Below, piece after piece: positions 9,625-41,515 of a DNA stretch of 64,000 nucleotides. The stretch covers positions 226,581 to 290,580 of the forward strand of contig DATAJY010000017.1 in the NCBI GenBank assembly GCA_036261885.1, in the 5' to 3' direction. The notes beneath the pieces were generated by a model. The model worked only from the letters and a program-made list of their open reading frames with translations. It had not been told where the DNA came from and ran no database searches. A program made the position numbers and the translations under genes. Source of the DNA: Thermoanaerobaculia bacterium (GTDB lineage: Bacteria > Acidobacteriota > Thermoanaerobaculia > Gp7-AA8). Within the stretch, counting starts at the first letter, position 1, and the number at the start of each line of letters is the position of its first letter.

Positions 9625-9718
9625 TGGCGGAGAGAGAGGGATTCGAACCCTCGGTAGAGCTTTAAGGCCCTACGGCGGTTTAGCAAACCGCTGGTTTCAG
9701 CCACTCACCCATCTCTCC
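9625..9718 (-). tRNA. tRNA-Ser(GCT)
   Basis: GGAGAGATGGGTGAGTGG...GCGGT TT GCT AA ACCGC, long variable arm, GGTTCGAATCC...CCA. Confidence 0.95.
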
Positions 9719-9852
9719 GGCCGAACGCGAGATGGTAAAGGGTTTCCGAGTGAGGATCAATTCCCCGTGGCTCTTCTTTTCGGGGGGATCCGTGCTGACG
9801 CACGGGATGACACGCGGGGTTTTTACGATGCCGGTGCAGTTCACGCGGCCGT

Positions 9853-9942
9853 TGGCGGAGGAGGTGGGATTCGAACCCACGGTACCCGTGAGGGTACGGC
9901 GGTTTTCAAGACCGCTGCCTTAAACCACTCGACCACTCCTCC
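9853..9942 (-). tRNA. tRNA-Ser(TGA)
   Basis: GGAGGAGTGGTCGAGTGG...GCGGT CT TGA AA ACCGC...GGTTCGAATCC...CCA. Confidence 0.95.
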
Positions 9943-25188: not shown

Positions 25189-26925
25189 ATGAGGAAAGCC
25201 GGGCTTTTATGCATCGTCCTGCTGGCGCATGCGGGGGCGTTCGGACAGATCGTTCCGAATCCGCCACCGGAGAAGAACCCGCACGCGTGGGCGGATGCAG
25301 ACAGGAAGTATCCATCGGCGAAGGTCTGTGGCCAGTGCCATCCCTCGCAATATCAGCAGTGGAGCGTGTCGTCGCACGCGTACGCGAACCTCTCGCCGAT
25401 GTTCAATAAATTCGAGCAGACCATCAATGACCTGTCGCAGGGCACAGTGGGCCATTTCTGCGTCCGCTGCCACGCCAGCGTCGGCACGGCATTGGGGGAG
25501 CTCCGGAACATCGCCTGGTGGGATCGCAGCGCCGCGTCGCGGGAAGGCATTACGTGCGTGAGCTGCCACCGCGTCGGCGAGGCGTATGGGAAAGTCAATG
25601 CCGCGCGCCGCATTACACCGGGCGACATTCACGAGCCGGTATTCGGCCCGCTCGATAACAGCGGCGGCGTCAAGGCGATCAGCAACGCCGCCGATTTCAA
25701 AATTCTCGTCAGTCCGGATCAACCCGATCAGCCCGGCTATCTGCGCATTCACCAGACCGTCGTGCAGTCGGATCTGATCCGCAAATCGGAATTCTGCGTC
25801 GCCTGCCACCAGGTGCAGGTGCATCCGGGCATCAAGCTCGAAACGGTCTGGGAAGAATACCGGGCCTCTCCCGCGGCGAAAGAAGGGATCACCTGCCAGC
25901 AGTGCCACATGAGCACGAATCCCGGCACGCCGAGCGGGTACGGCGAGGGGCCGATTGCGTTCGTCAATGGCAACGTCGTCAATTCCAAACGCCCGATGAC
26001 CGATCACACATTCGTCGGTCCGGGCTATCCGATCAGCCATCCCGGCCTCTTTCCGTTCCGGCTCGAAGAGTCGCCGTTCACGCCGCAGCAATGGCTGACC
26101 TTCAACTATCGCGAGGAATGGGGCGACGAGGCGTTCGAAAGCACCTCGCCGCCGGCGGACAAGTTCCCACCCGAATGGCAGAACGTCGCCGATCGCCGGA
26201 AGGCGTGGGTGATCGTGAAGGAGAATCTCGGCCGCTGGTATGAGCGACGCGAAGGGCGCAGGAAAATCCTGAGCAATGCCTCGCACCTCGACGGCCCGTT
26301 CTTCAAGAACAAGCCGGCGGCGGGGAAGGCGCTCACGTTCGAATACCGGATCCGCAATCTCAACAAGGGCCACAACCTCCCATCCGGATCTCTCGGCGCG
26401 CAGCCGGAGCTGTGGCTCAACGTCGCGCTGCTCGATCCGAGCGGAGCGATCGTCTGGGAATCGGGGTATGTCGACAGTGTCGGCGACGTTGCCGATCTGC
26501 AGTCGGACGACGTTCGTCATGGACGCGTTCCGCATGACGACCAGCTCGTGAGCATGCAGGCGAAATTCATCACGACCAACGTCAAGGGGACCGATCGCGA
26601 GATGTACCTGCCGATCAACCTCGACGTCGACCAGCGGCCGTTCATTCGACCCGGTGGAACGCCGACCTCTCTCGTCAATCACCCGCCGCTGGCGCGCATG
26701 GAAAAGCGCAGCATCCCGCCATTGGGAACCCGCGTCGCGCAATACAAAGTGCCGGCCGCAAAACTGCAGCAGCGCGGAACCTACAAGCTCGCGGTGCGAT
26801 TACGCGGCCGCACGGAGCCGATCTATTTCATGAATTTCGTCAAGGCCACGAAGGACATGATCCGCGCCGAAAACGAATGGGCCGATGACATCCATCCGTA
26901 TGCCGTCGAATTCGAAGTTCATTGA
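25189..26925 (+). CDS. Periplasmic multiheme (5 CxxCH) cytochrome c
   Basis: Signal peptide; CGQCH, CVRCH, CVSCH, CVACH, CQQCH; C-terminal GHNLPSG Ig-like region. Confidence 0.88.
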   Translation: MRKAGLLCIVLLAHAGAFGQIVPNPPPEKNPHAWADADRKYPSAKVCGQCHPSQYQQWSVSSHAYANLSPMFNKFEQTINDLSQGTVGHFCVRCHASVGTALGELRNIAWWDRSAASREGITCVSCHRVGEAYGKVNAARRITPGDIHEPVFGPLDNSGGVKAISNAADFKILVSPDQPDQPGYLRIHQTVVQSDLIRKSEFCVACHQVQVHPGIKLETVWEEYRASPAAKEGITCQQCHMSTNPGTPSGYGEGPIAFVNGNVVNSKRPMTDHTFVGPGYPISHPGLFPFRLEESPFTPQQWLTFNYREEWGDEAFESTSPPADKFPPEWQNVADRRKAWVIVKENLGRWYERREGRRKILSNASHLDGPFFKNKPAAGKALTFEYRIRNLNKGHNLPSGSLGAQPELWLNVALLDPSGAIVWESGYVDSVGDVADLQSDDVRHGRVPHDDQLVSMQAKFITTNVKGTDREMYLPINLDVDQRPFIRPGGTPTSLVNHPPLARMEKRSIPPLGTRVAQYKVPAAKLQQRGTYKLAVRLRGRTEPIYFMNFVKATKDMIRAENEWADDIHPYAVEFEVH

Positions 26926-26939
26926 GAAAGGAGGCGAAC

Positions 26940-28427
26940 GTGAACGTAATCCAACGCACTGTGACCCTCCTCGTGGCACTGTCAATGACAATGGCCGTGG
27001 CGATGCCGCTGTGGGCCGATGATGAACCGCCGTTGATGTCGCCGGAAGCGAAAATGCTCGGCGAGCTGAAAGACGTCAAGGGATGGTTCGGTCCCGATCC
27101 GCAATACCCGAAAGCGGAGTACGACGGCCAGGCGCAACTCGAAATCTACAGTGGCAAATACCTCAACAAGACGGCGAAGCCGCTCATTGAATGGGGCATG
27201 CGTCTGTACGACCGAGGCGAGTACACGCCGCGGCCGACGTGGCTGGGGCGTGAGAATCCGATCTACTTCCACTTCATGTCGTATGGCGATCTGCGCGTGG
27301 CGGGTGCTCTGTATGACCGCGGCGTGTCGGGTGCGAGCGGTACCGAGCAGTCGGCGATCGCGGTCCGTCTCAATCTCGACATGGATCTCGCGCTCACGTC
27401 GACCGAGCGCATCCACGCTTTCGTTCGTCCGCTCGACAAGAACGGTTCGTTCACGCGCTATCAATTCAAAGGCGCGGTGGACGACGAATTCATCGACGAA
27501 TTCGATTTCGATCTCGACACGCTCTTTTTCGAAGGCGACCTCGGATCGATTCGCGAAGGGCTGACCGGCCGCCGCCAGGGGCCGGATCATCCGATCGCGT
27601 TCGGGCGCGTGCCTCTCCTGACGCAGAACGGCGTCTGGGTCGAGGACGCATTCGACGGCCTCGCCTTCGGCTTCACGGCGCGCAACAGTCCGAAGTACGA
27701 CATCAGCAACATGGATCTGACGTTCTTCGCGGCGTTCGACAAAGTCACCACCGCCGCGGCGCCGGGCGACGATGCGAAAGCGTTCGGCTTCGCCGGTTTC
27801 ATGGATGCGCGCAAGGGCTACATCGAATACGGCTACGGGTTCGTCGCGGCCGACGATGACGATCTCAGCTACCACAACGTCACGGCCGCATTCACGCGCC
27901 GCTATTTCGGCCATCTCGCCAACAGCGTGCGCGTGATCGGCAACTTCGGGCAGCAGGGCGTCGCCGGTAACAAGACCGCGGACGGCGTGCTGCTGCTGGT
28001 CGAGAATTCGTTCTTCCGCCGCGATCCGATCAAGCTCGTGCCGTATGTGAATCTCTTCGCCGGCTTCGACTCGCCGCAGTCGCTGGCCCGCAATGCCGAT
28101 GCCGGCGGCGTCCTGCGCAATACCGGAATCAATTTCGAATCCGACGGCATCACCGCCTATCCGACGCTCGATGCCAGCGCGCACAAGGCGTATGGCGGAG
28201 CGGCCGGACTGGAATGGCTGTTCAAGCTCGACCGGCAGATCGTGGTCGAAGGAGCAGTGGTGCAACGTACCGGCGGCAGCGCGCTCGGCGACGAATACGC
28301 GCTCGGTGTCCGCTATCAACATCCGATCACCAACGCCTGGATCGTCCGCGCCGACGCCATGCACGGATGGCGGCAGGGACAGAAGGACGTCTATGGCGTC
28401 CGTCTGGAACTGCGCCGGAAATTCTGA
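26940..28427 (+). CDS. Putative outer-membrane beta-barrel protein
   Basis: GGAGG SD then GTG; signal peptide; alternating aromatic/Gly strands; ends VRLELRRKF with terminal Phe. Confidence 0.65.
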
Positions 28428-28437
28428 GGAGGATGCG

Positions 28438-28902
28438 ATGCCTGTATTTCAGCTCCACGTCAATGGCAGCGTGCGTACAGTGAACGTCGACGGCAACATG
28501 CCGCTCCTGTGGGTCTTGCGCGACGAGCTCGGACTGACCGGAACGAAATTCGGATGCGGTATCGCTCAATGCGGCGCCTGCACGGTGCATCTCAATGGGC
28601 ACCCGGTGCGCTCCTGCGTCACGGACGTCGGCGTCGCCGCGCTCGCCGAGATCACCACCATTGAAGGCTTGTCGCCCGACGCCAGCCATCCGTGTCAGCG
28701 CGCGTGGCTCGAGCTCGGCGTACCGCAATGCGGCTTCTGCCAGCCCGGCCAGATCATGAGCGCGGCGGCGCTGCTGCACGACAAGCCGAATTGCACCGAC
28801 GACGAAATCGACGACGCGATGCGCGGCAACATCTGCCGCTGCGGCACCTATCCGCGCATCAAGGACGCGATCCGCAGACTCTCCGGAGGCACGCGGTCAT
28901 GA
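28438..28902 (+). CDS. (2Fe-2S)-binding small subunit, IorA/CoxS family
   Basis: [16 protein letters not shown]...SC; QCGFCQPG; GNICRCGTY. Confidence 0.93.
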
Positions 28903-31454
28903 CCACGCTCGTCGAGATCACCCGCAGAGACTTCCTCCGCCACACCGGCGTCGGCACGAGCGCACTGGTGCTCGGATTCACCGTTTCGCCGAATCTCTTC
29001 GCCGCCGGAAAATTGATCGATGCCGTGACCAACGGCGTCGCGCTGGCGCCGTTCGTGGCCATCAAGCCGTTGAGCGGCGATATCGTGATCATCACCCATC
29101 GCGCAGAGATGGGGCAGGGCATCCGCTCCAGTCTGGCCGCGGTCATCGCCGATGAGATGGATGCGGACTGGAAACGCGTGACCCTGCGGCAGTCCGATGC
29201 GGATTCGGTCACGTTCGCCGTCGCCTATCCGTATCAGCCGGCCGATCAACCGAAGTACATCGTCGACGGCAATCTCGCGCAATTCACCGACAGCTCGCGC
29301 AGCATGGCCGCCTATTTCGGGCCGATGCGCCTGTTCGGCGCCGCCATCCGGCTGGTGATGATGCGCGCGGCCGCGAGGAAGTGGAAGATGCCCGACACCT
29401 CGCAGCTCGAGACGCGCGAGCACAAGGTGTGGGTCAAAGGGACGAAACGGAATGTCGATTACGGCAAGCTGCTGCTGCACGCGCGCGCGGTGGCGAAAAC
29501 TCCTCCCGATTACGAGGAGATCGTGGCCGCGCTGAAGCCGATCGACAAATGCACGTTCATCAACAAGGAGAAGATTCCGTTCGTCGACGCGCCCGACATG
29601 GTGACGGGCAGGACGAAATACGGCGCCGACATTCGTCTGCGCGGCATGCTCACGGCCGTCATCGAGCGATCGCCGGTAGCGAACGGCGACGTCGAGAGTT
29701 TTGACGACAGCGAAACGCGCAAGGTCGATGGCGTCGTCGACGTCATTCCGGTGCGCCTGCCCGGCCCGCTCGGTCTTGGCGGCGTCGGCGGCGCATTCGC
29801 ACCACACAGCGGTGTGGCCGTCCTGGCGAAGAACACCTGGGCGGCGATGCAGGGCCGCAAGAAGCTGAAGGTGAAATGGACGCAGAGCCCGCACGACGGT
29901 TATGAGACCGAGGCGTATCGGCGGGAGCTCGAAGCCTCGGCTGCGGCGCCGGGCGAGAAGGTGCGCGTACGCGGCGACGTCGACCGGGCATTCGCCGGCG
30001 CGGCCACGATCGTCGAGGCGCAGTATTACGTGCCGCATCTCGCACAAGCGCCGATGGAGCCGCCGGTGGCGACGGCGCTATTCGAAAACGGCAAACTCGA
30101 GGTGTGGGCGCCTTCCCAGAATCCCGATAGCGCGCAGCAGATGGCCGGTGTGGCCGCGTTCGGCATTCCGCCCGAACAGTGGGAGCTCCCGAGCACCATC
30201 GAGGAAATGCGCCGCAAGGTCACCGTGCATCTCCCGCTCCTCGGCGGCGGATTCGGCCGCAAATCGAAACCCGACTACATCGTCGAGGCGGCCATTCTCG
30301 CGGCGAAGAAACCAGGCACGCCCATCCGCGTGCAATGGACGCGCGAAGACGACGTTCGCTTCAGCTACTTCAACGCCGTTTCCAGCCAGTACCTGAAGGC
30401 TGGTCTCGATGGCTCCGGCCGGGCCACCGCGATTCTGCAGCGCAGTGCGGCGCCGTCGATTTTTGCGACGCTGTTTCCGCCGCCCGCGGATCCCGAGCAT
30501 CCGACTCCGGCCGAACAGTTCTTCATTCAGAAACGCGCCGATTTTCACGACGGCGGCAAGTACCCATACTCCTCGGCGACGGAACGCGCGCAGGGGCTGG
30601 AGGACATGCCGTTCGATCTTCCCAACCTGCAACTCGAGAGCTGCGCGGCGAAGAACCACATCCGCATCGGCTGGATGCGTTCCGTGGCGAACGTCTATCA
30701 CGCCTTCGCCATCGGCTCGTTTGTCGACGAAATGGCGCGCGCGGCCGGCAATCAGGACCCGGTGAATTACCTGCTCGAGCTGATCGGAAAGGGCTCGGTG
30801 CTGGATGAGAAGACGTTCCACAAGGAAGGCGTCGCGCATTTCAACAACAATGAATTTCCGTTGAACCCCGGCGTGGTCACCAATCCGCGCGGCGAGTCGA
30901 TCATCGTGGTCAAGCCATACGAGCCTGATTCGCGGCGCCTGCGCAACGTCATCGAACGCGCGGCCGCGAGCGCTCAGTGGAAGGATCGCCATGGCCGGCT
31001 GCCGAAAGGACGGGGACTCGGCATCGCCGCGCATCGCAGCTTCCTCACGTACGTGGCGATGGTGTTCGACGTATCGCTCAATGAATCGAATGAACTGACG
31101 ATCAACGAGGTGCACGCTTCGATCGATTGCGGTCTGGCCGTCAATCCCGATCGCGTGCGTGCGCAGATCGAAGGGGGCATCAATTACGGGTTGAGCATGG
31201 CCCTGCTGGGAGAGATCACGGTGCGGGACGGACAGGTGCAGCAGCGCAATTTCGACAATTACCCGGTGCTGCGCATCACGCAGATCCCGAAGAAGATCAT
31301 CATCGACATCGTCGAGAGCGATCGCGATCCGACCGGTGTCGGCGAGCCTCCCACTCCGGTGGTGGCGCCGGCGCTCGCCAATGCGATCGTCGCCGCCGGT
31401 GGGCCGCGCATTCGCGAGATGCCGTTCCACAGGCACATCAAAGTCGTCGCGTGA
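28899..31454 (+). CDS. Molybdopterin large subunit, isoquinoline/aldehyde oxidoreductase (IorB-like), Tat-exported
   Basis: ITRRDFL Tat motif; [25 protein letters not shown]; ATGA overlap. Confidence 0.9.
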
Positions 31455-31457
31455 ACG

Positions 31458-32981
31458 ATGGAGCTCCTGCGCATCCTCGAAGAGGCGCGTGCCGCGGGTG
31501 GTGGTGACTGCGCGCTGGCGACGGTGGTCGAGACCAACGGCTCGACCTACCGTCGTGCCGGGGCTCGGCTGATCGTGCGCGGCGATCGCAGAACGTGGGG
31601 TGCGATCAGCGGCGGCTGTCTCGAAGCAGACATCATCGAGCGCGCACTGCGCGCGATCGCAACCGGTGAAGCCGCGCTGGCGCGCTACAAGCCGGCCGCG
31701 GACGATCTCGTGGTCGGTCTCGGCAGCGGCTGTCAGGGCGAAGTGGTGGTCTTCATCGAGCCGCTGCCTCCTTCACTCCTCGAAGCAGGGCCGGACGCGA
31801 ACGACGGAGATGCATGGATCACCATGTATCGCGGAGAGACCCGCGGTACGACCATCGGTCGCACGGTCGATGCGCCGGACGACGCCTTCGTGCAGCCGAT
31901 CGTGGCGCGGCCGGCGCTGCTGTTGTTCGGCGCGTCACCGGCCGCCGAGGATCTGCTGCGGTTTGCCAAAGGCCTCGGATGGTGCGTGCGTGTCGGCGAT
32001 CATCGGCCGTTCGTGGCGAACGACCCGCGTTTCGCCGCCGCCGACTCGATCGAGATCGCGCCGGTCGAAGAACTGCCCGCGCGATTTTCCTATGCATCCT
32101 CGACGGCCGCGGTGGTGATGACGCATCACTACCTGCGCGACCTCGCGCTCCTGCGCCGGCTCGCTCCGATGCGACTCGCGTATCTCGGACTGATCGGTGC
32201 GCGGGAGCGGGCGCGTAAACTCATCGCCGAAGCCGGAATCGACGAATCGGCCGTGCACGCGCCGGCGGGACTCGACCTCGGCGCCGACGCACCGGCCGAG
32301 ATCGCGTTGTCGATCGTGGCGGAGATCCAGTCCGTGTTGAAACGAACCACCGCCACCGCTCTCCGGAATCGCCCCGGCCGCATTCATGACGCGCCGGAAG
32401 AAAACGCGATCGTCATTCTCGCCGCCGGCGGGTCGCGACGACTGGGCCATCCGAAACAGCTCGTCGAGATCGACGGCCAGTCGCTCATCCGTCGCGCGGC
32501 GGAAGCGGCACTGGCGGTGGGGAGCGGCTCGGTACACATCGTCGTCGGCGCCGAGGTTCTTCGCGTGCGCGCGGCGCTGGAGGGCCTGCCGGTCGAGTGG
32601 ATCGTCAACGACGCGTGGGAGGAGGGGATCGCCTCCTCGATTCGCGCGGCCGTTGATGCCATCGAACAGCGCCCGCAACCCGTCGAGACGATGACGCTCA
32701 TGCTGTGCGATCAACCGGGCGTGACCACGGATGTGCTGCGTCGTCTGCTCGATGCCTGGCGCGGCACGCGTTCCGCCGTCATCGCCTCGCGTTATCCCGA
32801 AGGGGCGGGCGTGCCGGCGCTGCTGCATTCCGCGCTCTTTCCGGCGCTGAAAACGCTGCGGGGCGACATCGGGGCACGGCAGCTGATTCGCGAGCTCGAT
32901 CGCGACATCGTCACCATTCCGCTCGACCTTCCGGACGATGTCGATACGGCGGAAGATGTGCGCCGTTTGCGCATTCCGTGA
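31458..32981 (+). CDS. XdhC/CoxI chaperone fused to a MocA-like NTP transferase
   Basis: GSTYRRAGA, ISGGCLE, MTH..RD, PAGLDLG..PAEIALSI, followed by ILAAGGSRRLG.PKQL, LCDQP, GDIGAR, DVDT. Confidence 0.9.
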   Translation: MELLRILEEARAAGGGDCALATVVETNGSTYRRAGARLIVRGDRRTWGAISGGCLEADIIERALRAIATGEAALARYKPAADDLVVGLGSGCQGEVVVFIEPLPPSLLEAGPDANDGDAWITMYRGETRGTTIGRTVDAPDDAFVQPIVARPALLLFGASPAAEDLLRFAKGLGWCVRVGDHRPFVANDPRFAAADSIEIAPVEELPARFSYASSTAAVVMTHHYLRDLALLRRLAPMRLAYLGLIGARERARKLIAEAGIDESAVHAPAGLDLGADAPAEIALSIVAEIQSVLKRTTATALRNRPGRIHDAPEENAIVILAAGGSRRLGHPKQLVEIDGQSLIRRAAEAALAVGSGSVHIVVGAEVLRVRAALEGLPVEWIVNDAWEEGIASSIRAAVDAIEQRPQPVETMTLMLCDQPGVTTDVLRRLLDAWRGTRSAVIASRYPEGAGVPALLHSALFPALKTLRGDIGARQLIRELDRDIVTIPLDLPDDVDTAEDVRRLRIP

Positions 32982-33007: not shown

Positions 33008-33152
33008 CCGTGTCAGGCGTCACTGAAGCGGCACACTTTAGTTACGTCATGACGGACAAACATACTTGAACCGTTACCGCCGCGTCTCTAATGTAGATGC
33101 ACATACATCAGGAGATCGGGAAACGGTGGACGGACTCACGCGGGAAGCAGTG

Positions 33153-34505
33153 ATGGCCGGCGCTTCGGCGGCGGTACATGCGGAAGCGGAAGAACCGGCT
33201 GGTTGTACGCGCGGCCGACTCGTGTACTGGCTCGGCTGGCAACTGCCGCCGCGCGGTGCCTGCGAGCGGCTCGAAGCGAACGGCTTCCGCTGGCGCGTGG
33301 CCACCAATGCCGCGGATGTCTCGCGCATCGCCGCGCAGTCGGTGCTCTGTTTCGCTCCCCACGCGTCGAGCGCACTGGTGAAACGAACGCTGGACGCGCT
33401 GGCGGGCCGTGCCTGCGCGGTGATCGTGCACGGCGCGCGCGAGCAACTCGCGGCGTTCGCGGAGCTGCTGGACGGCGATCGACTCTTCTATCTCGCGGCG
33501 GGTGTGCTCGAAGAGCGCGACCTCGCGGCGATCGTCGAGGCGGCGGCGCGGCAATTCGAGGAACGGCGCGAGCTCGATGATGCCGCGCATGAGATCACGG
33601 CTGGCGTGCTGCGCCGCATCGCGCTGGCGCAGAGCGTCGTCGAGCTCTCCACCGCCGTGAAGGCGGCGATCGTGCGAACCGTGAGCGCGGAGCGCGGTCG
33701 ATGTCTGCTCTTCGATCGGGAACGGCAGGTGCTCTGGCCGGCGTCGCGTGGAGACGATGACGGCGAGAGCATCGCCGCGGGGCTGAGCAGTTTCGCGCTG
33801 CGCACCGGCGAGGCAGTGCTGGCTGGCTGTGCGGTGGCCGATCCCCGGTTCGATCGCGAGCTCGATCATCCCGAGGGTCGCGACAGCGATCGGCTTCTGG
33901 CGGTGCCGGTGCGCGCGCGCAAAGGCGACGGAGTGGCGGTGCTGATCGCTTCACGTCCGAAAGAGGAGCGCGCTTTCGACGCGCGCGATGTGGCTGCGCT
34001 CGAAACGCTGGCCGCGCACGTGGCGCCCTACATCGTCGCGTGGCTGCCGGCGCCCGATGTGCCGACGGACTCGCCGTTTCGTACGCAGGCGTTGCGCGAG
34101 CTCGCATCGCCGTCGGTCGCCGGCGCGGAACCGCTGCGACTCGATCCGGCGTGGACCAGGCGGGTGACGCTCCTCGGAGTGGTGACGCTGCTGGTGGCCA
34201 TCGTCGCCGCGATCTTCGTACGCGTGCCGGAGTACGCAGCGGCAGACGCGATGGTGCGCAACGGCACACTGACCGCGACCTTTGCCGCTCCGCACGCGAA
34301 CGAGATCGAGCGCGGCATGACGCTGCGCTACGGCAAGGAATTGATGACCGTCGAACGCGTCGATGCGATCGGGTCGCGCGTCATCGTCATCGCGCGCGTG
34401 CCTTCGCTTGTCGATGAATCGCATGGTCGCGCCGAGGTGCGCGTGGGGAGCGAGCGGCTGCTCTTCGTGATTTTCCCGAAACTCAAAGGAGCCACGCGTG
34501 TCTGA
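33153..34505 (+). CDS. GAF-domain protein fused to a TM helix and a truncated HlyD/secretion-adaptor-like region
   Basis: GAF motifs (GL..FALRTGE, DPRFD, LLAVPV, AFD.RDV..LE.LA), then PFRTQAL...PLRL.PAW, a TM helix, and GRAEVRVGSERLL..IFP. Start could be as far up as 33066. Confidence 0.7.
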   Translation: MAGASAAVHAEAEEPAGCTRGRLVYWLGWQLPPRGACERLEANGFRWRVATNAADVSRIAAQSVLCFAPHASSALVKRTLDALAGRACAVIVHGAREQLAAFAELLDGDRLFYLAAGVLEERDLAAIVEAAARQFEERRELDDAAHEITAGVLRRIALAQSVVELSTAVKAAIVRTVSAERGRCLLFDRERQVLWPASRGDDDGESIAAGLSSFALRTGEAVLAGCAVADPRFDRELDHPEGRDSDRLLAVPVRARKGDGVAVLIASRPKEERAFDARDVAALETLAAHVAPYIVAWLPAPDVPTDSPFRTQALRELASPSVAGAEPLRLDPAWTRRVTLLGVVTLLVAIVAAIFVRVPEYAAADAMVRNGTLTATFAAPHANEIERGMTLRYGKELMTVERVDAIGSRVIVIARVPSLVDESHGRAEVRVGSERLLFVIFPKLKGATRV

Positions 34506-36741
34506 GCGGGTGCGATACATCGCGCAGACCGCCGCCGCCGATTGCGGCGCGGCCTGTCTGGCGATGACGCTCGGCGTGCATGGCCGCGACGTGACGCTCG
34601 AAGACGTTCGTCGCGTGACCGGCCTCTCGCGGCACGGTCTCGACGCGCAGATCCTCGTCGATGCCGCCGCACATTTCCGGCTGCGCGGGCGCGGCGTGCA
34701 ACTGCGCACGCCGCAGGAGCTGGCGTATCTCGAGCGCGGCAGCATTCTGCATTGGGAGTTCCGCCACTTCGTCGTGCTCGATCGCTTCGAAAAGAGCGGC
34801 GCGTGGATCGTCGATCCTGCAGCGGGACGGCGCTTCGTCACACTCGGCGAGCTCGATCGCGCGCTCACGGGCGTGGCCATCAGCTTCGAGCCGGCCGGCG
34901 ATTTCGAGAGCGGCGGACTGCAGCGCGAATCGTTGCTGCGCCGCTATCTGCAACGCGTGCTCCGTCACGACGGCGCGCTCGTGCGCATCGTGCTCGCATC
35001 GATTCTGCTGCAGCTCTTCGCGCTGGCCGTGCCGCTCGTGACCGGCGTGCTGATCGATCGCGTGATTCCGCACGCCGATCGATCGCTGTTCACGATTCTC
35101 GGCATCGGCGCGTTCGCGCTGGTCACGTTCTCCTTCTTCGCCGCGCTCATTCGCGGACACATCCTGCTCGCGCTGCGCACGCGCCTCGACTCGCAGCTCA
35201 CGCACGACTTTCTCGAACATCTCGTGCAGCTGCCGTTCTCGTTTTTCCAGAACCGCTCGGCTGGCGATCTCCTGATGCGACTCGGCAGCAACGCCACGAT
35301 TCGCGAGATCCTCACCTCGGCCGTCCTTTCCGGCGCGCTCGACGGCCTGATGGTGTTGTCGTATCTCGCGCTGCTGCTCTTCGCCGACTGGCGCGTCGGG
35401 TTGCTGGTCTCGCTGCTTGCCGTGGTGCGCGTGATCATTCTCGTCGGCGCCCTGCAACGCCGGCGTCGGCTCACGTCCGAAGCGCTGCAGGCGCAGGCCG
35501 CATCGCAGAGCTTCGAGGTACAGCTGCTGGCCGGAATCGAGGCGCTGAAAGCGTGCGGCGCGGAACGTCGCGCCGTCGATTCGTGGTCTCAACTCTTCGT
35601 GCGCGAGCTGAACGTCTCTCTTGCGCGCGGCCGCCTCGACGCGCTCGTCAATTCATTGCTGGATGGACTGGCGCTGGCCTCGCCGATCGCCGTGCTGCTT
35701 TACGGCGGCTCGCGGGTGATGAGCGGCGAGCTGACGCTCGGCATGATGCTCGCGCTCGCGTCGCTGGCGGCCGGATTCCTCGCACCGCTCTCGACGCTCG
35801 TCTCCAACGCATCGCAGTTCCAGCTGCTCGGCAGCTATCTCGAGCGGCTCGACGATGTGCTCTCGACGCCCGCGGAGCCGCAGCGTCGCGAGCTCGCGCC
35901 GCCGAAATCATTCGAAGGACGCATCGCGCTCGACGGCGTCACGTTCGGCTACAGCCCGCTCGTGCCGCCGGCGATCGCGCGCGCGTCGTTCGAGGTCGAC
36001 GCGGGACGGCTGATCGCCATCGTCGGACCGTCGGGCTCGGGGAAGTCGACGCTGGCCGGATTGATCGCCGGCCTCCTGCACGCCGACTCGGGACGCGTGC
36101 TCTACGACGGCCGTCCGCTCGACGAATATCCGCGCGAATGGCTGCGCACGCGCATCGCCTACGTGCCCCAGCGCTCGTACCTGTTCGGGAGCTCGATTCG
36201 CGCGAACATCGCTCTGCAGGATCCGGAGCTGCCGCTCGAACGGATCATCGAAGCGGCGAAGCTGGCCGAGATTCACGACGATATCGCGCGCATGCCGCTC
36301 GGCTACGAGACCGTGCTCGCCGATGGAGGGACGTCGCTTTCGGGCGGCCAGCGGCAGCGCATCGCTCTGGCCCGCGCGCTGGTCGGTCAGCCGCGCGTGC
36401 TCATTCTCGACGAAGCCACGAGCGCGCTCGATGCCATCACCGAAGAGAAGATCCAGCGGAACCTCCTGCGCATGCACGTGACGCGCATCGTTGCCGCACA
36501 TCGACTGAGCACGATCCGCGATGCCGACCGCATCGTCGTGCTCGAAGAAGGAACGATCACCGATTCAGGCACTCACGGCGAGTTGATCGCGCGTGAGGGT
36601 CTGTACCCCCGGCTCGTCGCCGCGCAACTCGAGAGCGCAGACGAGCCGGACTCCCTTCCACCCGCGGTCCGCTCCGCCTCGGTACCGGTCGAAGCGCGAA
36701 CGGCCCGCAGAACTTCGATGATGAAAGGAATTCAGTCATGA
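34498..36741 (+). CDS. lanT: Peptidase-containing ABC transporter (LanT/PCAT)
   Basis: C39 motifs Q...DCGAACLAM, HW..HFVV, DP; GPSGSGKST; LSGGQRQR; ILDEATSALD. Confidence 0.93.
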   Translation: MSERVRYIAQTAAADCGAACLAMTLGVHGRDVTLEDVRRVTGLSRHGLDAQILVDAAAHFRLRGRGVQLRTPQELAYLERGSILHWEFRHFVVLDRFEKSGAWIVDPAAGRRFVTLGELDRALTGVAISFEPAGDFESGGLQRESLLRRYLQRVLRHDGALVRIVLASILLQLFALAVPLVTGVLIDRVIPHADRSLFTILGIGAFALVTFSFFAALIRGHILLALRTRLDSQLTHDFLEHLVQLPFSFFQNRSAGDLLMRLGSNATIREILTSAVLSGALDGLMVLSYLALLLFADWRVGLLVSLLAVVRVIILVGALQRRRRLTSEALQAQAASQSFEVQLLAGIEALKACGAERRAVDSWSQLFVRELNVSLARGRLDALVNSLLDGLALASPIAVLLYGGSRVMSGELTLGMMLALASLAAGFLAPLSTLVSNASQFQLLGSYLERLDDVLSTPAEPQRRELAPPKSFEGRIALDGVTFGYSPLVPPAIARASFEVDAGRLIAIVGPSGSGKSTLAGLIAGLLHADSGRVLYDGRPLDEYPREWLRTRIAYVPQRSYLFGSSIRANIALQDPELPLERIIEAAKLAEIHDDIARMPLGYETVLADGGTSLSGGQRQRIALARALVGQPRVLILDEATSALDAITEEKIQRNLLRMHVTRIVAAHRLSTIRDADRIVVLEEGTITDSGTHGELIAREGLYPRLVAAQLESADEPDSLPPAVRSASVPVEARTARRTSMMKGIQS

Positions 36742-36926
36742 AGAAGCAGATCACCCGCAAGCTCGAACTCTCGAAGGAAACGCTGCGCAATCTCTCCGAA
36801 CGCGATCTGAAGGGCGCGGTCGGTGGCATCTCCGCGATCTGTCAGCCGACGGGCGTCTCGGACTGCTACCCGTGTCCGACCGAAAGCTGTTCGGACGGCA
36901 GCTGCAGCTCGTGGCGCTGCTGCTGA
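36738..36926 (+). CDS. lanA: Class I lanthipeptide precursor
   Basis: SD AAGGA; leader KLELSKETLRNL...VGG; Cys/Ser/Thr-rich core; sits between lanT and lanC. Confidence 0.92.
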   Translation: MKKQITRKLELSKETLRNLSERDLKGAVGGISAICQPTGVSDCYPCPTESCSDGSCSSWRCC

Positions 36927-36988
36927 TGCGTTTCGCATCAGCGTGGCCGGCGGTGGCCTCCTTCAGGAATTGAGGTCCTGAAGGAGGC
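36922..36988 (+). terminator. Two stem-loops downstream of lanA
   Basis: GCTGATGCG-TTT-CGCATCAGC and GCCTCCTTCAGGA-N7-TCCTGAAGGAGGC; no U-tract. Confidence 0.55.
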
Positions 36989-37097
36989 GTGACGTCCGGT
37001 CGGCACGACCAAGGGTTCGCAACCTTTTCGCAAACGCGGCCGTCGGTGTGCGAGTGTGCACCTCGCATACCGGCTGCCGCAACTGGAGGATCTCCGC

Positions 37098-38357
37098 ATG
37101 TGGCAGTCCGTGACGGACGCCGAGCTCGCGGCTGAGTGCTGGTCCGCGATCGGCGAGATCGAATCGTGTCTCGTCGCCCATCTCGAATCGAATGAGTCGC
37201 GCGATCCGTTGCTCGCCAGCGGCGACTCCGGTCTGGCGCTCTTCTTCGCCTATCTCTCCGCGGCGCGGCCCGATTCACCGGCCGGGGACCGCGCGCTCGA
37301 GGCGTTGTCGCGCAGTCTCGACGGCCTCGCCGCCATGCAGCTGCTGCCGGCGCTGCTGATCGGCTACAGCGGCATCGGCTGGGTCGTCGAACATCTCACC
37401 CGCGACTTCTTCGAAGGCGATGACGATCTCGCCACGCCGATCGACGATGCGCTCGAAACGCTGCTGCACGACGTCAACGATGCGCCGCCGTACGAGCTGG
37501 TCGGAGGTCTGGTCGGCATCGGCACGTATCTGATCGAACGCCTGCCGCATCCGCGCGCCGCGAGAACACTCACACGCATCCTCGACCTGCTCGAGATGCG
37601 CGCCGAACATTCGCGCGACGGCATCACCTGGTTCACTCCCGCCGAATGGCTCGCGAACTGGCAGCGCGAGCAGATGCCGCACGGCTGCTACAACCTCGGC
37701 GTCGCGCACGGCGTCCCCGGCATCATCGGATTTCTCGCCGCTGCAAAACAGGAGGGATTCGACGACGCGCGGATCGAAACACTCGCCGCGGGTGCGGTGC
37801 GCTGGTTGCGCGCGCAACGCATCGAGGCCGATCAGTCGTCGCTGTACGGCGCCTGGCTCGTTCCAGGGAAGCCGCTCGAGACCACGCGCACCGCCTGGTG
37901 CTACGGAGACATCGGCGTCGCGGCCGTACTGCTGCGCGCCGCGCGCGCATTCGATCGAAAGGATTGGGAAGACGAAGCGCTGTCGGTCGCGCGCGCCGCG
38001 GCGACGCGACCCGCCGAGCGGACGCTGGCCATCGATCCCGGCCTCTGCCACGGCGCGGTCGGCAACGCCCATCTCTTCAATCGTTTCTATCAGGCCACGC
38101 GCGAGCCGCTGATGAAGGAGGCGGCTCTGGAGTGGTATCGCCGCGCGCTGGCGATGCGCCGGCCGGGCGAAGGTCTGGCCGGCCTGCTGACGTGGATCAA
38201 TCCTGTCGGCCGCGAGGGATTCTGGAAAGGGGAGTACGGCTTTCTCAGCGGCATCAGCGGATTCGCGCTGGCGATGCTCGCGGCGGTGACGGACGTCGAG
38301 CCGAAATGGGATCGCGTGATGCTCGTCGCCGTTCCGCCGAAGGAGCTCGCGGCTTGA
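37098..38357 (+). CDS. lanC: Lanthionine synthetase (cyclase) LanC
   Basis: GVAHGVPG, AWCYGD, GLCHG zinc-ligand motifs; GGAGG SD. Confidence 0.93.
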   Translation: MWQSVTDAELAAECWSAIGEIESCLVAHLESNESRDPLLASGDSGLALFFAYLSAARPDSPAGDRALEALSRSLDGLAAMQLLPALLIGYSGIGWVVEHLTRDFFEGDDDLATPIDDALETLLHDVNDAPPYELVGGLVGIGTYLIERLPHPRAARTLTRILDLLEMRAEHSRDGITWFTPAEWLANWQREQMPHGCYNLGVAHGVPGIIGFLAAAKQEGFDDARIETLAAGAVRWLRAQRIEADQSSLYGAWLVPGKPLETTRTAWCYGDIGVAAVLLRAARAFDRKDWEDEALSVARAAATRPAERTLAIDPGLCHGAVGNAHLFNRFYQATREPLMKEAALEWYRRALAMRRPGEGLAGLLTWINPVGREGFWKGEYGFLSGISGFALAMLAAVTDVEPKWDRVMLVAVPPKELAA

Positions 38358-41300
38358 GCCTCGAACGCGAGTACGCCGCCTCCGAGCTGATCGTGCTGCG
38401 CACGCCGCTGCTGCCGTTCGATGCCGTCGAAGCGTGGAGCAGCGGCAACCCCGATCGCGCGCAGTTGCGCGAGCGCCTCGTGCAGATCGTCACCCGTCCC
38501 GATGTGCGGGAAGCGTTGTTCGTCGCATCCCCCGATCTCGTGGCCAGCATCGACAACTGGCTGCACGATCCGCTCTCGAAAAAAGGACAGCGGACCGAGC
38601 TCGGGCTCGTGCGCTATTTCCTGCGGATGGCCACACGCCCGACGCCGTTCGGACTCTTCTCCGGCTGCACCGCCGGCAGCAGCGGCGGCACGACACGCCT
38701 CGCGCTCGCGTCGCGCGACGACTACCGGCGCCACACGCGGCTCGACATGGATTACCTCTTCGCGCTCTGCGAAAGCCTCACGCGCAGTCACGACCTGCGC
38801 GCCGAGATCCGCTTTCGCCCGAACGCGAGTCTCTACGAAACCGCGGGACGCCTGCGCTACGCCGAAGCGCGCGTGAACGGACGGCATCGCACCTATCACC
38901 TCGTGGCGGTCGATACGTTTGACGCGCTGCAGCTCGCGCTCGATCGCGCCGCGAACGGTGCGACACTCGACGAGCTGGCGCTCGCACTCGTCGAAAGCGA
39001 TGCCGAAGGGGAGATCACGTACGACGACGCGGCTGGGTTCGTGCACGATCTCGTCGACAACCAGCTGCTGCTGCCGGAACTGAGCCTGCCGGTCACCGGC
39101 GAAGAGAGCACGCACGGACTGGTGCGCCAACTGGCGGCGACGCGTTCGATGCGCGGTGCGGCAGCGCTGCTCGCACGCACCGACTCCGCACTCGACGCGC
39201 TCGACGCGCGTGGCGTCGGCTGCGAAACAAACGCGTATCTCGACATCGCCCGCGAGCTCGAACCGCTCGGCGTGCCGGTCGAGCTCTCGCGGCTCTTTCA
39301 GCTCGATCTCTTCAAGCCGGCGGTCGACGTCGGTCTCAGCGATGCCGTGATTCAGGAGATTCTCCGCGGCGTCGAATGGATGCACCGTCCCGTCGCGCAA
39401 CGCCGCTTCGATCCGATCCTCGAAGAATTTCGCCGCTCGTTCCGCGATCGTTATGGCGAGGGAAACGACGTGCCGCTGCTGGCCGTGCTCGACGAAGAGA
39501 CCGGCATCGGCTTCGATCGCTCGGGCATGGCCGGTGCGGACGCGTCGCCGCTGCTGGCCGGTCTCCCGTTCAGCGGTAAGGCGACGCCGTCGATCTCGTG
39601 GATGCCCTCCGATGCGACGCTCATCCGACTGCTGTCGGATGCCGTCGCCGGCGGCCGCATGGAGATCGAGCTGACGGACGACGACTGGAAGTATCTCGAA
39701 AATCGCGAGCGCCCTCCGATGCCCGACGCGTTTCATGCGGTGGTGACGCTCGCGGCGCCGTCGATCGACGCGATCGAGCGCGGCGACTATCGGATCCTGC
39801 TGCACAGCACCACCGGCCCCTCGGGCGCGCGGATGTTCGGCCGCTTCTGTCACGCGGACGAACGGATCCGCGCGGGCGTGAAAGCGCACCTGGCCGCGGA
39901 GGAGGCGCTCGCCCCCGAGGCGATCTTTGCGGAGCTCGTGCATCTCCCGGCGGGGCGTATGGGAAACATCCTCGCGCGTCCCGTTCTCCGGGAATGGGAG
40001 ATCTCGTTCCTCGGCAAATCGGGCGCGCCGGAAGAACGCCAGCTCGCCGTGAGCGATCTCGTCGTGACGGTCATCGGCGATCGCATCCGCCTTCGCTCGC
40101 TGACGCACGATCGCGAAGTCATCCCCCGCCTCACGACCGCCCACAACACCACGTTCGAGAGTCTCGGCGTCTACCGCTTCCTCGCCGCGATGCAGAACGC
40201 CCTCGGCATCGAATGGAACTGGGGACCGCTCGAGGCCGCACCGTTTCTGCCGCGCGTCAGTTGCGGCCGCGTCGTCTTCTCGCGCGCGCGATGGCGGATG
40301 CGCGAACGCGACATCAAGCCGCTCGCGGCGGTCTCCGGTGACGCGCGCTTCGCGCTCGCGCGCGAATGGCGCGCCCGGCATCGCATGCCGCGCTTCGTCG
40401 TGCTCGTCGACGGAGACAATGAGCTGTTGCTCGATTTCGAAAATCCGCTCAACGTCGATGCGGTGATGGAGCTCTTCAAAACCCGCGAGGAGGCGGTGCT
40501 GCACGAAGTCTTTCCCGCGCCCGATGAGCTCTGCGCCACCGGTGCGGAAGGACGCTTCGTGCACGAGCTGATCGTGCCGTTCGTCCGGAAGACAGCGGTC
40601 CCCGCGAAACCGTTCGTCACGAAGAGCGTGCCGCTGCCACCGCGTCCGCGAATCTTCGCTCCCGGCTCCGAATGGCTCTTCGCGAAACTCTACGTCGGCA
40701 GCGGCAGCGCGGATCTCGTGTTGCGCGACGAGGTCGCGCCGCTCGCACACGACGCGCTCGCATCGGGCGCCGCACGCGCCTGGTTCTTCATCCGTTTCGG
40801 CGATCCCGCCTGGCACCTTCGCGTGCGCTTTCGCGGAGAGCGGGATGCGCTGCGCGACGCCGTGCTGCCGAAACTCGAAGCGCTGTTCGAACGGCTGCAG
40901 GCCAGCGGCACCGCCTGGAAGTTTCAGCTCGACACCTACGAGCGTGAGATCGAGCGCTACGGCGGCCCGGCAGGAATCGAGCTGTGCGAGGAACTCTTCT
41001 TCTTCGACTCGGAAGCGGTGGTGTCGTTGCTCGAAACGTTCACGAGCGACGCCGGCGCCGAGGTCCGCTGGCGGACGATTCTTCTCGGAATGGATCGCCT
41101 CCTCGAAGATTTCGGCTACGACCTTCCGGCGAAGATCGAGCTCGCCGAACGCGCGCGCGACGGCTTTGCCCGCAACTACCGCTACGACCCGCTGCGCACG
41201 AGGATCGCCGACCGCCTGCGCAGCGATCGCGCCGCGCTGCTCCGCCTCCTCGCCGAACCCCCGCCCCCCGCGCTGCGCCGCCGCTCCGAATCGAACGCCC

Positions 41301-41515
41301 CGCTCATTCAGGAGCTCCGCGCCCGCGAATCCCGAGGCCACCTGCAAACCCCCATCGCCTCGATCGTCCCCAGCCTCATCCACATGTTCGTCAACCGCGC
41401 CACCCGCTCCGCCGGCCCCGAACACGAGCTCGTCCTCTACGACTACCTCGTGCAGCTCTACCGCTCACAAGTGGCCAGGGAAAAGAAAGGAAGGGAGGTG
41501 GGAGTTGCGGTGTGA
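38354..41515 (+). CDS. lanB: Lantibiotic dehydratase LanB (glutamylation and elimination domains)
   Basis: LRTPLLP, RYFLRMATRPTPFGLF, GRF, FLPRV, DNEL, EWLFAKLY, WFFIRF.DP..HLRVR, YEREIERYGG, HMFVNR; TTG start overlaps the lanC stop. Confidence 0.93.
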   Translation: MSLEREYAASELIVLRTPLLPFDAVEAWSSGNPDRAQLRERLVQIVTRPDVREALFVASPDLVASIDNWLHDPLSKKGQRTELGLVRYFLRMATRPTPFGLFSGCTAGSSGGTTRLALASRDDYRRHTRLDMDYLFALCESLTRSHDLRAEIRFRPNASLYETAGRLRYAEARVNGRHRTYHLVAVDTFDALQLALDRAANGATLDELALALVESDAEGEITYDDAAGFVHDLVDNQLLLPELSLPVTGEESTHGLVRQLAATRSMRGAAALLARTDSALDALDARGVGCETNAYLDIARELEPLGVPVELSRLFQLDLFKPAVDVGLSDAVIQEILRGVEWMHRPVAQRRFDPILEEFRRSFRDRYGEGNDVPLLAVLDEETGIGFDRSGMAGADASPLLAGLPFSGKATPSISWMPSDATLIRLLSDAVAGGRMEIELTDDDWKYLENRERPPMPDAFHAVVTLAAPSIDAIERGDYRILLHSTTGPSGARMFGRFCHADERIRAGVKAHLAAEEALAPEAIFAELVHLPAGRMGNILARPVLREWEISFLGKSGAPEERQLAVSDLVVTVIGDRIRLRSLTHDREVIPRLTTAHNTTFESLGVYRFLAAMQNALGIEWNWGPLEAAPFLPRVSCGRVVFSRARWRMRERDIKPLAAVSGDARFALAREWRARHRMPRFVVLVDGDNELLLDFENPLNVDAVMELFKTREEAVLHEVFPAPDELCATGAEGRFVHELIVPFVRKTAVPAKPFVTKSVPLPPRPRIFAPGSEWLFAKLYVGSGSADLVLRDEVAPLAHDALASGAARAWFFIRFGDPAWHLRVRFRGERDALRDAVLPKLEALFERLQASGTAWKFQLDTYEREIERYGGPAGIELCEELFFFDSEAVVSLLETFTSDAGAEVRWRTILLGMDRLLEDFGYDLPAKIELAERARDGFARNYRYDPLRTRIADRLRSDRAALLRLLAEPPPPALRRRSESNAPLIQELRARESRGHLQTPIASIVPSLIHMFVNRATRSAGPEHELVLYDYLVQLYRSQVAREKKGREVGVAV

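Follow-up and report, generated by a model that had tools for sequence, protein, structure and literature searches.

Class I lanthipeptide precursors that pair an LxLxKx5L leader and a Gly-Gly end with a C39-domain transporter have been described from Bacteroidetes (Walker et al., 2020; PMC7268733). The locus studied here shares with this class (the pinensin family; NCBIfam NF038153, Pfam PF28317) its leader motif, the GG end, the C39 transporter and the LanB and LanC enzymes, and differs from the pinensins, whose LanB is split, in its full-length LanB, its single precursor and its probable host, a soil bacterium of the Acidobacteriota. The motif of its core had no match among the searched entries of that study's table (PMC7268733). 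The viridisins, thalassomonasins and Ped15 likewise combine a double-Gly leader with LanB and LanC in a Gram-negative host, but come from other phyla and have several precursors per cluster. In the viridisins, products of a double-Gly class I operon, all Cys are cyclised, and no antimicrobial activity was found according to PMC11270710.

With regard to ring number, the characterised maximum is seven, reached by geobacillin I and elgicin, and eight rings were predicted for a Tannerella peptide (PMC11251773). Geobacillin I, elgicin and maddinglicin have 7 Cys and seven known or predicted overlapping rings at about 3.2-3.3 kDa, as predicted here, but they come from Bacillota, whereas the core of the present precursor (LanA) is acidic and lacks a lipid II motif. 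Maddinglicin, for which seven rings were predicted, further differs from LanA in its FDLD-type leader and nisin-like N-terminal rings. Geobacillin I is nisin-like, and the core of Z-geobacillin (~3.3 kDa) equals that of LanA in its numbers of Cys (7) and Ser/Thr (9); the rarity implied when the original prediction measured the LanA core against nisin was thus overstated, given these counts and the seven rings of geobacillin I and elgicin.

From the same bacterial class, the tha/the clusters of Thermoanaerobaculia also encode a Cys-rich lanthipeptide core, but with a class II LanM, a thiazole-forming GMC oxidase and only two lanthionines (PMC13083261). In the literature searched, which included few subscription papers, the characterised Acidobacteriota lanthipeptides were of classes II and III only (PMC13083261). 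Seven rings, the leader family and the textbook biosynthetic logic were already known, and Cys-rich cores are the rule for this leader family in this bacterial class. New here are the core scaffold and the 8-Cys orthologues, and the core sequence, the predicted overlap code, the acidity and the host differ from those of the known peptides.

We analysed a 64,000-nt stretch of DNA from a Thermoanaerobaculia genome (the window), in which lanA lies in a five-gene run made of a GAF/adaptor-remnant gene, a C39-ABC exporter gene, lanA, lanC and a full-length lanB (Table 1). The best explanation of this locus, and in our view a likely one, is that LanA is a class I lanthipeptide precursor that is cleaved after Gly-Gly and yields an acidic product with seven partly interlocked rings. 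We infer enzyme activity, ring number, pairing, export and function from genes, motifs, synteny and conservation.

Table 1. Features of the lan locus, with positions counted from the first nucleotide of the window
Feature	Position	Strand	Remarks
GAF/adaptor-remnant gene	33066..34505	+	start codon uncertain, probably later
LanT (C39 peptidase-ABC transporter, PCAT)	34498..36741	+	747 aa; Pfam C39 + ABC_membrane + ABC_tran
lanA RBS	36724..36729	+	AAAGGA, 8 nt upstream of start; from sequence
LanA leader	36738..36827	+	30 aa, LxLxKx5L, ending Gly29-Gly30; NF038153 match
LanA core	36828..36926	+	32 aa plus stop; Cys 5, 13, 16, 21, 26, 31, 32
LanA core hydroxy residues			conserved Ser/Thr 2, 8, 11, 18, 20, 22, 25, 28; Ser27 variable
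Stem-loop 3' of lanA	36956..36988	+	13-bp perfect stem
Second long hairpin	37036-37080		lanA-lanC intergenic region
LanC cyclase	37098..38357	+	419 aa; Pfam LANC_like
LanB dehydratase, full-length	38354..41515	+	~1050 aa with glutamylation and elimination domains; approximate start

The lanA gene is a 62-aa ORF on the + strand (36738-36926) that reads MKKQITRKLELSKETLRNLSERDLKGAVGG ahead of its 32-residue core, which contains 7 Cys, 7 Ser, 2 Thr, 2 Asp, 1 Glu and 1 Arg (net charge -2) and ends in Cys-Cys; the translation reproduced exactly what had been claimed of it, namely a leader with LxLxKETLxxL and GG and an acidic 32-aa core with these Cys, Ser and Thr counts. Its ATG overlaps the lanT stop codon, a purine-rich GGA(G/A) stands upstream of the start in 12/12 loci, and its GC3 (0.83) is similar to that of the adjacent genes. 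Over leader codons 2-30, differences from 11 orthologues fall mainly at third positions (7 synonymous and 1 non-synonymous against orthologue L003). An opposite-strand or shadow ORF reading was rejected after comparison of the orthologous loci and on the leader-model match. A Pfam scan of the LanA peptide matched no family, and the top score in the ESM Atlas (0.88) was below the 0.9 threshold, a lead only.

Cys density by itself is weak evidence and not diagnostic, because 30 of the 27,613 short ATG-started ORFs of the genome have at least 7 Cys within their last 32 residues; among those 30, lanA is the only one that also has the leader motif. The description of the core as very Cys-dense was right as a count, yet such a core is ordinary in its family, since among 68 sequences (the query and 67 homologues, a set whose retrieval by similarity favours relatives close to the query) 7 Cys are found in 35 and a Cys-Cys end in 55. 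Of 20 precursors retrieved from other Thermoanaerobaculia families with the leader model as sole criterion, 6 carry 7-10 Cys. The search for paralogous precursors that had been proposed was carried out by tBLASTn and returned lanA itself as the sole match; a paralogue using the same LanB and LanC was rejected on this basis, a motif scan having added one other plausible leader, which belongs to another class I cluster (contig C2).

To characterise the leader, we scored LanA against NF038153 (class I lanthipeptide leader L1a), obtaining 29.2 bits for a cut-off of 22, and LanA was the only sequence above cut-off in the whole genome. The leader carries LxLxKx5L, not the FxLD of nisin-type leaders, and L11, T15, L19, R22, L24, G29 and G30 are invariant in the 45 aligned sequences. 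Cleavage after Gly29-Gly30, as originally proposed, is supported as a prediction from sequence, because A27, L24 and L19 fit positions -4, -7 and -12 of the PCAT motif and G29-G30 is invariant; a hydrophobic residue is thus found at each of these positions, next to a C39 domain with its triad. Cleavage at G26-A27 was rejected, as it would place D, S and T at -4/-7/-12 and leave the G29-G30 invariance aside.

The products of the neighbouring genes have the features expected of a class I pathway, namely a separate LanB, a stand-alone LanC with a Cys-Cys-His zinc site and catalytic His, and a precursor with a class I leader and 9 Ser/Thr for 7 Cys. LanB matched Lant_dehydr_N and _C (PF04738, 537 bits; PF14028, 214 bits) and, in the PDB, MibB, MadB and NisB. 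Of the five LanB motifs checked, whose catalytic roles we take to be those of the corresponding NisB residues, four are present in 11/11 orthologues and one in 10/11. LanC matched MadC (E 1e-21) and NisC (E 2e-11), its zinc ligands Cys268, Cys317 and His318 together with His204 and Arg264 are invariant in 9/9 orthologues, and Glu133, at the position of NisC Asp141, is Glu in all nine, a departure that counts against the proposed pathway (residue roles from PMC9889658). LanT has Cys16/His90/Asp106 and the Walker motifs, which are present in 5/5 sequences checked, and the PDB entry that matches it best is 6mpz (E 2e-21), the protease domain of LahT. Decarboxylation of Cys32 by a LanD (AviCys) was discarded, as the cluster has no LanD and the sole PF02441 gene of the genome, a 408-aa frame whose length suggests that it is probably CoaBC, is on another contig.

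The GAF/adaptor-remnant protein is modelled as a receiver-like alpha/beta region, a GAF domain, one TM helix and a short LcnD/AprE-type beta-barrel, and the AF2 model (pLDDT 67; DSSP) has no alpha-hairpin of the kind found in LcnD/HlyD-type adaptors. The GAF domain was matched by Pfam and by Foldseek, whose matches are GAF domains, while residues 325-479 gave Atlas structure matches to LcnD_C; 8 of 9 orthologues terminate right past the TM helix. A literature search for the combination of GAF and adaptor remnant found nothing relevant.

Between lanA and lanC, intergenic folding was stronger than in any of 200 shuffles (z = -5.3; 0/200), and a strong hairpin follows lanA in 12/12 loci (z -2.6 to -6.2) with differing sequences. 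A search for a U-tract terminator at this hairpin called none, and it is likely to act as a transcript stabiliser or a partial stop between the two genes. Relative L036 has at this place (its positions 9650-9870) an insertion of ~150 nt with a long imperfect hairpin. Promoter scanning returned 0 promoter-like sites, and terminator calls were at chance level. The last ~35 codons of lanT (36599-36741) encode a C-terminal tail of low similarity and hold DNA motifs conserved among relatives, possibly as an internal promoter or a processing site for lanA. In one of three soil RNA runs, all from a single study, a contig covers 36599-37038, including lanA, with zero mismatches, and the other two runs gave short partial matches only. 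Its depth over lanA (80.8, against 2-7 for the other listed pieces) is not a gene ranking, and the contig, assembled without strand and open to DNA carry-over, is compatible with transcription and gives neither strand nor level.

To assess the distribution of the locus, we searched the 124 genomes of the bacterial family with a peptide profile; 15 of them hold a full-length LanA orthologue (E < 1e-29), and 5 others gave weaker matches with shorter cores (tallies that include genome G175). A LanC-based search for related loci retrieved one locus only; the nearest named LanC relative (76%) comes from a MAG of the Thermoanaerobaculia whose precursor is nearly identical, which makes this the probable class of the host, and some homologues already bear the NCBI name 'class I lanthipeptide [Thermoanaerobaculia bacterium]'. 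In regions from 10 orthologue-bearing genomes, the order lanT-lanA-lanC-lanB is preserved in all ten and the GAF gene is present in nine, the tenth contig beginning inside lanT. Flanking genes vary, and no tailoring or oxidase gene is common to the 10 regions (a GMC gene is nearby in one and is not shared). A LytTR two-component system adjacent to the operon in 6/10 regions was dropped as evidence of signalling, because it represents one orthologous set and this genome, with about nine such systems, lacks a close orthologue (best match 47%). Upstream of the operon, the block at 25189-32981 encodes a multiheme cytochrome c, a porin-like protein, a 2Fe-2S subunit, a molybdopterin oxidoreductase and an XdhC-MobA fusion, and part of this block also occurs close to the lan operon in 2/10 regions. 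At the level of the class, NF038153 matched 36 of 401 genomes, in some of which as many as 19 copies were scored. The bacterial family of this genome has one copy per genome, and multi-copy genomes of other families (G020, G097, G213, G269, G337, G357, G365, G369, G397 and others, with 6-19 leader copies each) have very diverse Cys-rich cores.

To examine the relation between Cys and hydroxy residues, we aligned the query with the best 44 of the 67 homologues, six core Cys being invariant and Cys5 present in >90% of the 45 sequences. The Cys-spacing pattern fits 42 of these cores, the three left out being one divergent and two N-terminally shortened sequences. Ser/Thr occupies positions 8, 11, 18, 20, 22 and 28 in all 42, position 25 in 41 and position 2 in 39, against only 13 for position 27; position 19 (Glu19 in the query) is acidic in 39, and the spacing from position 28 to Cys-Cys varies between homologues. 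Parsimony on a 44-sequence tree gave 34 changes at the eight columns with conserved Ser/Thr, of which 30 are Ser-Thr swaps (30/52 with the Ser27 column added), against 1/146 at the 11 other scored columns; since the eight columns were picked after viewing the alignment and the tree rests on short sequences, the exact P value carries no weight. Homologue counts overstate independence, because the sequences are related and were retrieved by similarity. In variants with an extra N-terminal Cys, Ser/Thr stands three residues upstream of both Cys (7/7, possibly only one or two events), two variants without Cys5 also lack its upstream segment, and the variant ending in Cys-Cys-Cys has one additional Ser ahead of the Cys26 equivalent. 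Selection thus maintains, for every Cys, a beta-hydroxy side chain in the matching register, which is what a substrate of a dehydratase and a cyclase requires and what a disulfide or metal cluster could do without.

Pairing was then predicted with the nearest-upstream rule of PMC11251773, which is correct for 92/100 known ring patterns and misassigns heavily overlapped peptides such as myxococin (PMC11251773). Every Cys was paired within 10 residues in 45/45 cores, and all Cys were paired in 35% of shuffles that kept the Cys fixed. For the C-terminal half of LanA the rule returned Ser22-Cys26, Ser27-Cys31 and Ser28-Cys32. Because Ser27 is not conserved and Ser25 is, we prefer Ser25 and Ser28 as partners of Cys31 and Cys32, which would therefore make Ser20 the spare hydroxy residue; this assignment is uncertain, eight acceptors for seven Cys leaving the C-terminal pairing ambiguous, and Ser2-Cys5 is the best supported of the predicted rings. 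The overlap code predicted for LanA is SCSSCCSCSCSSCC or SCSSCCSCSSCSCC, compared with SCSCSCSSCSCSCC for geobacillin. Conserved Ser/Thr registers that change together with the Cys are what one would expect of thioether rings, and do not fit disulfides or metal binding. The proposal of up to seven thioethers thus gains support from Ser/Thr conservation, co-gain with Cys and rule-based pairing, and the disulfide or metal-binding topologies offered beside it no longer appear as equal alternatives.

According to the pathway that we propose, LanB would bind the LxLxKx5L leader, glutamylate the core Ser/Thr and then eliminate them (7-8 dehydrations), the zinc cyclase LanC would add each Cys to Dha/Dhb, closing up to seven rings, and the PCAT would cut after Gly29-Gly30 and export the core through the inner membrane. 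The rings would be Ser2-Cys5, the interlocked Thr8-Cys13 and Ser11-Cys16, and then Thr18-Cys21, while Cys26, Cys31 and Cys32 would take three partners out of Ser20, Ser22, Ser25 and Ser28 (Ser22-Cys26 being the simplest). One conserved hydroxy residue would remain as Dha/Dhb or unmodified, and the product would be a rigid acidic polycycle of ~3.2 kDa. The monoisotopic masses calculated for the core are 3344.27 without modification and 3218.19, 3200.18 and 3182.17 after loss of 7, 8 and 9 H2O.

The same pathway could close only 4-6 rings, leaving some Cys free or in a disulfide formed after export (for instance between the vicinal Cys31 and Cys32) together with extra Dha/Dhb, an outcome that we consider unlikely while giving it some weight. 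A precedent from Thermoanaerobaculia exists in ThaA, a class II peptide whose Cys-rich core has two lanthionines and three free Cys (PMC13083261), and in LanA the variable spacing ahead of Cys-Cys, together with the fact that Ser20 and Ser25 immediately precede a Cys, makes pairing in the C-terminal half ambiguous. However, Cys are gained or lost singly and always with Ser/Thr, when disulfide scaffolds would be expected to change pairwise, Cys31 and Cys32 are the sole non-adjacent downstream partners of the conserved residues 25 and 28, and the 10 loci have no common oxidase or tailoring gene. In one tested Bacteroidota class I case, expressed in E. coli, all Cys were in rings (PMC9993889).

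If all seven rings do form, the product might still be a conventional antibacterial lantibiotic acting on lipid II or through pores, like seven-ring geobacillin I, which appears rather improbable to us. The size and the Cys/Ser/Thr count are equal to those of Z-geobacillin, and a cationic charge is not shared by all lipid II binders, mersacidin being one without it. Against this, inspection of the LanA core sequence found neither of the lipid II motifs SxxxCTP(G/S)C and TxTxEC (PMC7268733). A nisin-type leader, the SxxxCTP(G/S)C motif and a cationic core are all absent. The cores are net negative in 67 of 68 sequences (the query and 67 homologues), which agrees with the earlier argument that an acidic core speaks against a cationic pore former, and no immunity gene of lanI/lanFEG type was recognised among the scanned neighbours. 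On account of the acidic cores, the absence of a known lipid II motif and the lack of a recognised immunity gene, we lean slightly, within our preferred explanation of a seven-ring class I product, towards a peptide that binds a specific protein target or signals over one that acts on lipid II or forms pores.

A metallothionein-like or metallophore peptide, binding metal through free thiolates and carboxylates with little or no lanthionine modification, would account for the seven Cys, the CxxC and CC motifs, the conserved acidic position 19 and the acidic core, but is very improbable, as it leaves unexplained the eight Ser/Thr-only columns and the co-gain of Ser/Thr with Cys, the class I leader stands beside LanB and LanC with intact motifs in 10/10 regions, and none of the 29 flanking proteins scanned is a metal-handling one.

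Extending the seven-ring class I reading, one may imagine, although we doubt that all of it holds, that acidic class I peptides form a family conserved in Acidobacteriota, with an uncharacterised seven-ring interlocked scaffold that grows to eight rings by modular [S/T]xxC addition and has two rings on the terminal Cys-Cys, and with a PCAT adaptor that has lost the hairpin needed for reaching an outer-membrane channel but has a GAF sensor, so that the peptide may enter the periplasm under signal control and have a non-antibiotic action there. A compact single-precursor cluster with natural 6-, 7- and 8-Cys variants makes ring number, ring order and Cys-Cys closure testable in E. coli. If true, an eight-ring orthologue would exceed the characterised maximum of seven given in a 2024 survey (PMC11251773). 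A first structure would also give access to the class I chemistry of a phylum for which the searched literature yielded only class II and III products as characterised.

Other loci of potential interest were noted in the same genome. Contig C12 (260752-270325) carries a class II cluster with prenyltransferase-like and GMC-oxidoreductase-like genes, LanM, two precursors whose cores start with Gly-Gly-Cys, a PCAT and, preceding it, a GAF-adaptor gene similar to that of the window; from gene names assigned by inspection, it resembles the thiazole-forming tha/the clusters of PMC13083261. The second class I cluster, on contig C2 (669457-674387), has a lanC (41% to that of the window) divergent from lanA, followed by lanB (49%); its 45-aa LanA, which lacks a clear GG, combines 3 Cys with a leader that reads LxLxRETL, no transporter was seen adjoining, and a LytTR pair is adjacent. 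Finally, two short Cys-rich ORFs on contig C4 (212320-212541 and 35657-35800) appear peptide-like rather than shadow frames.
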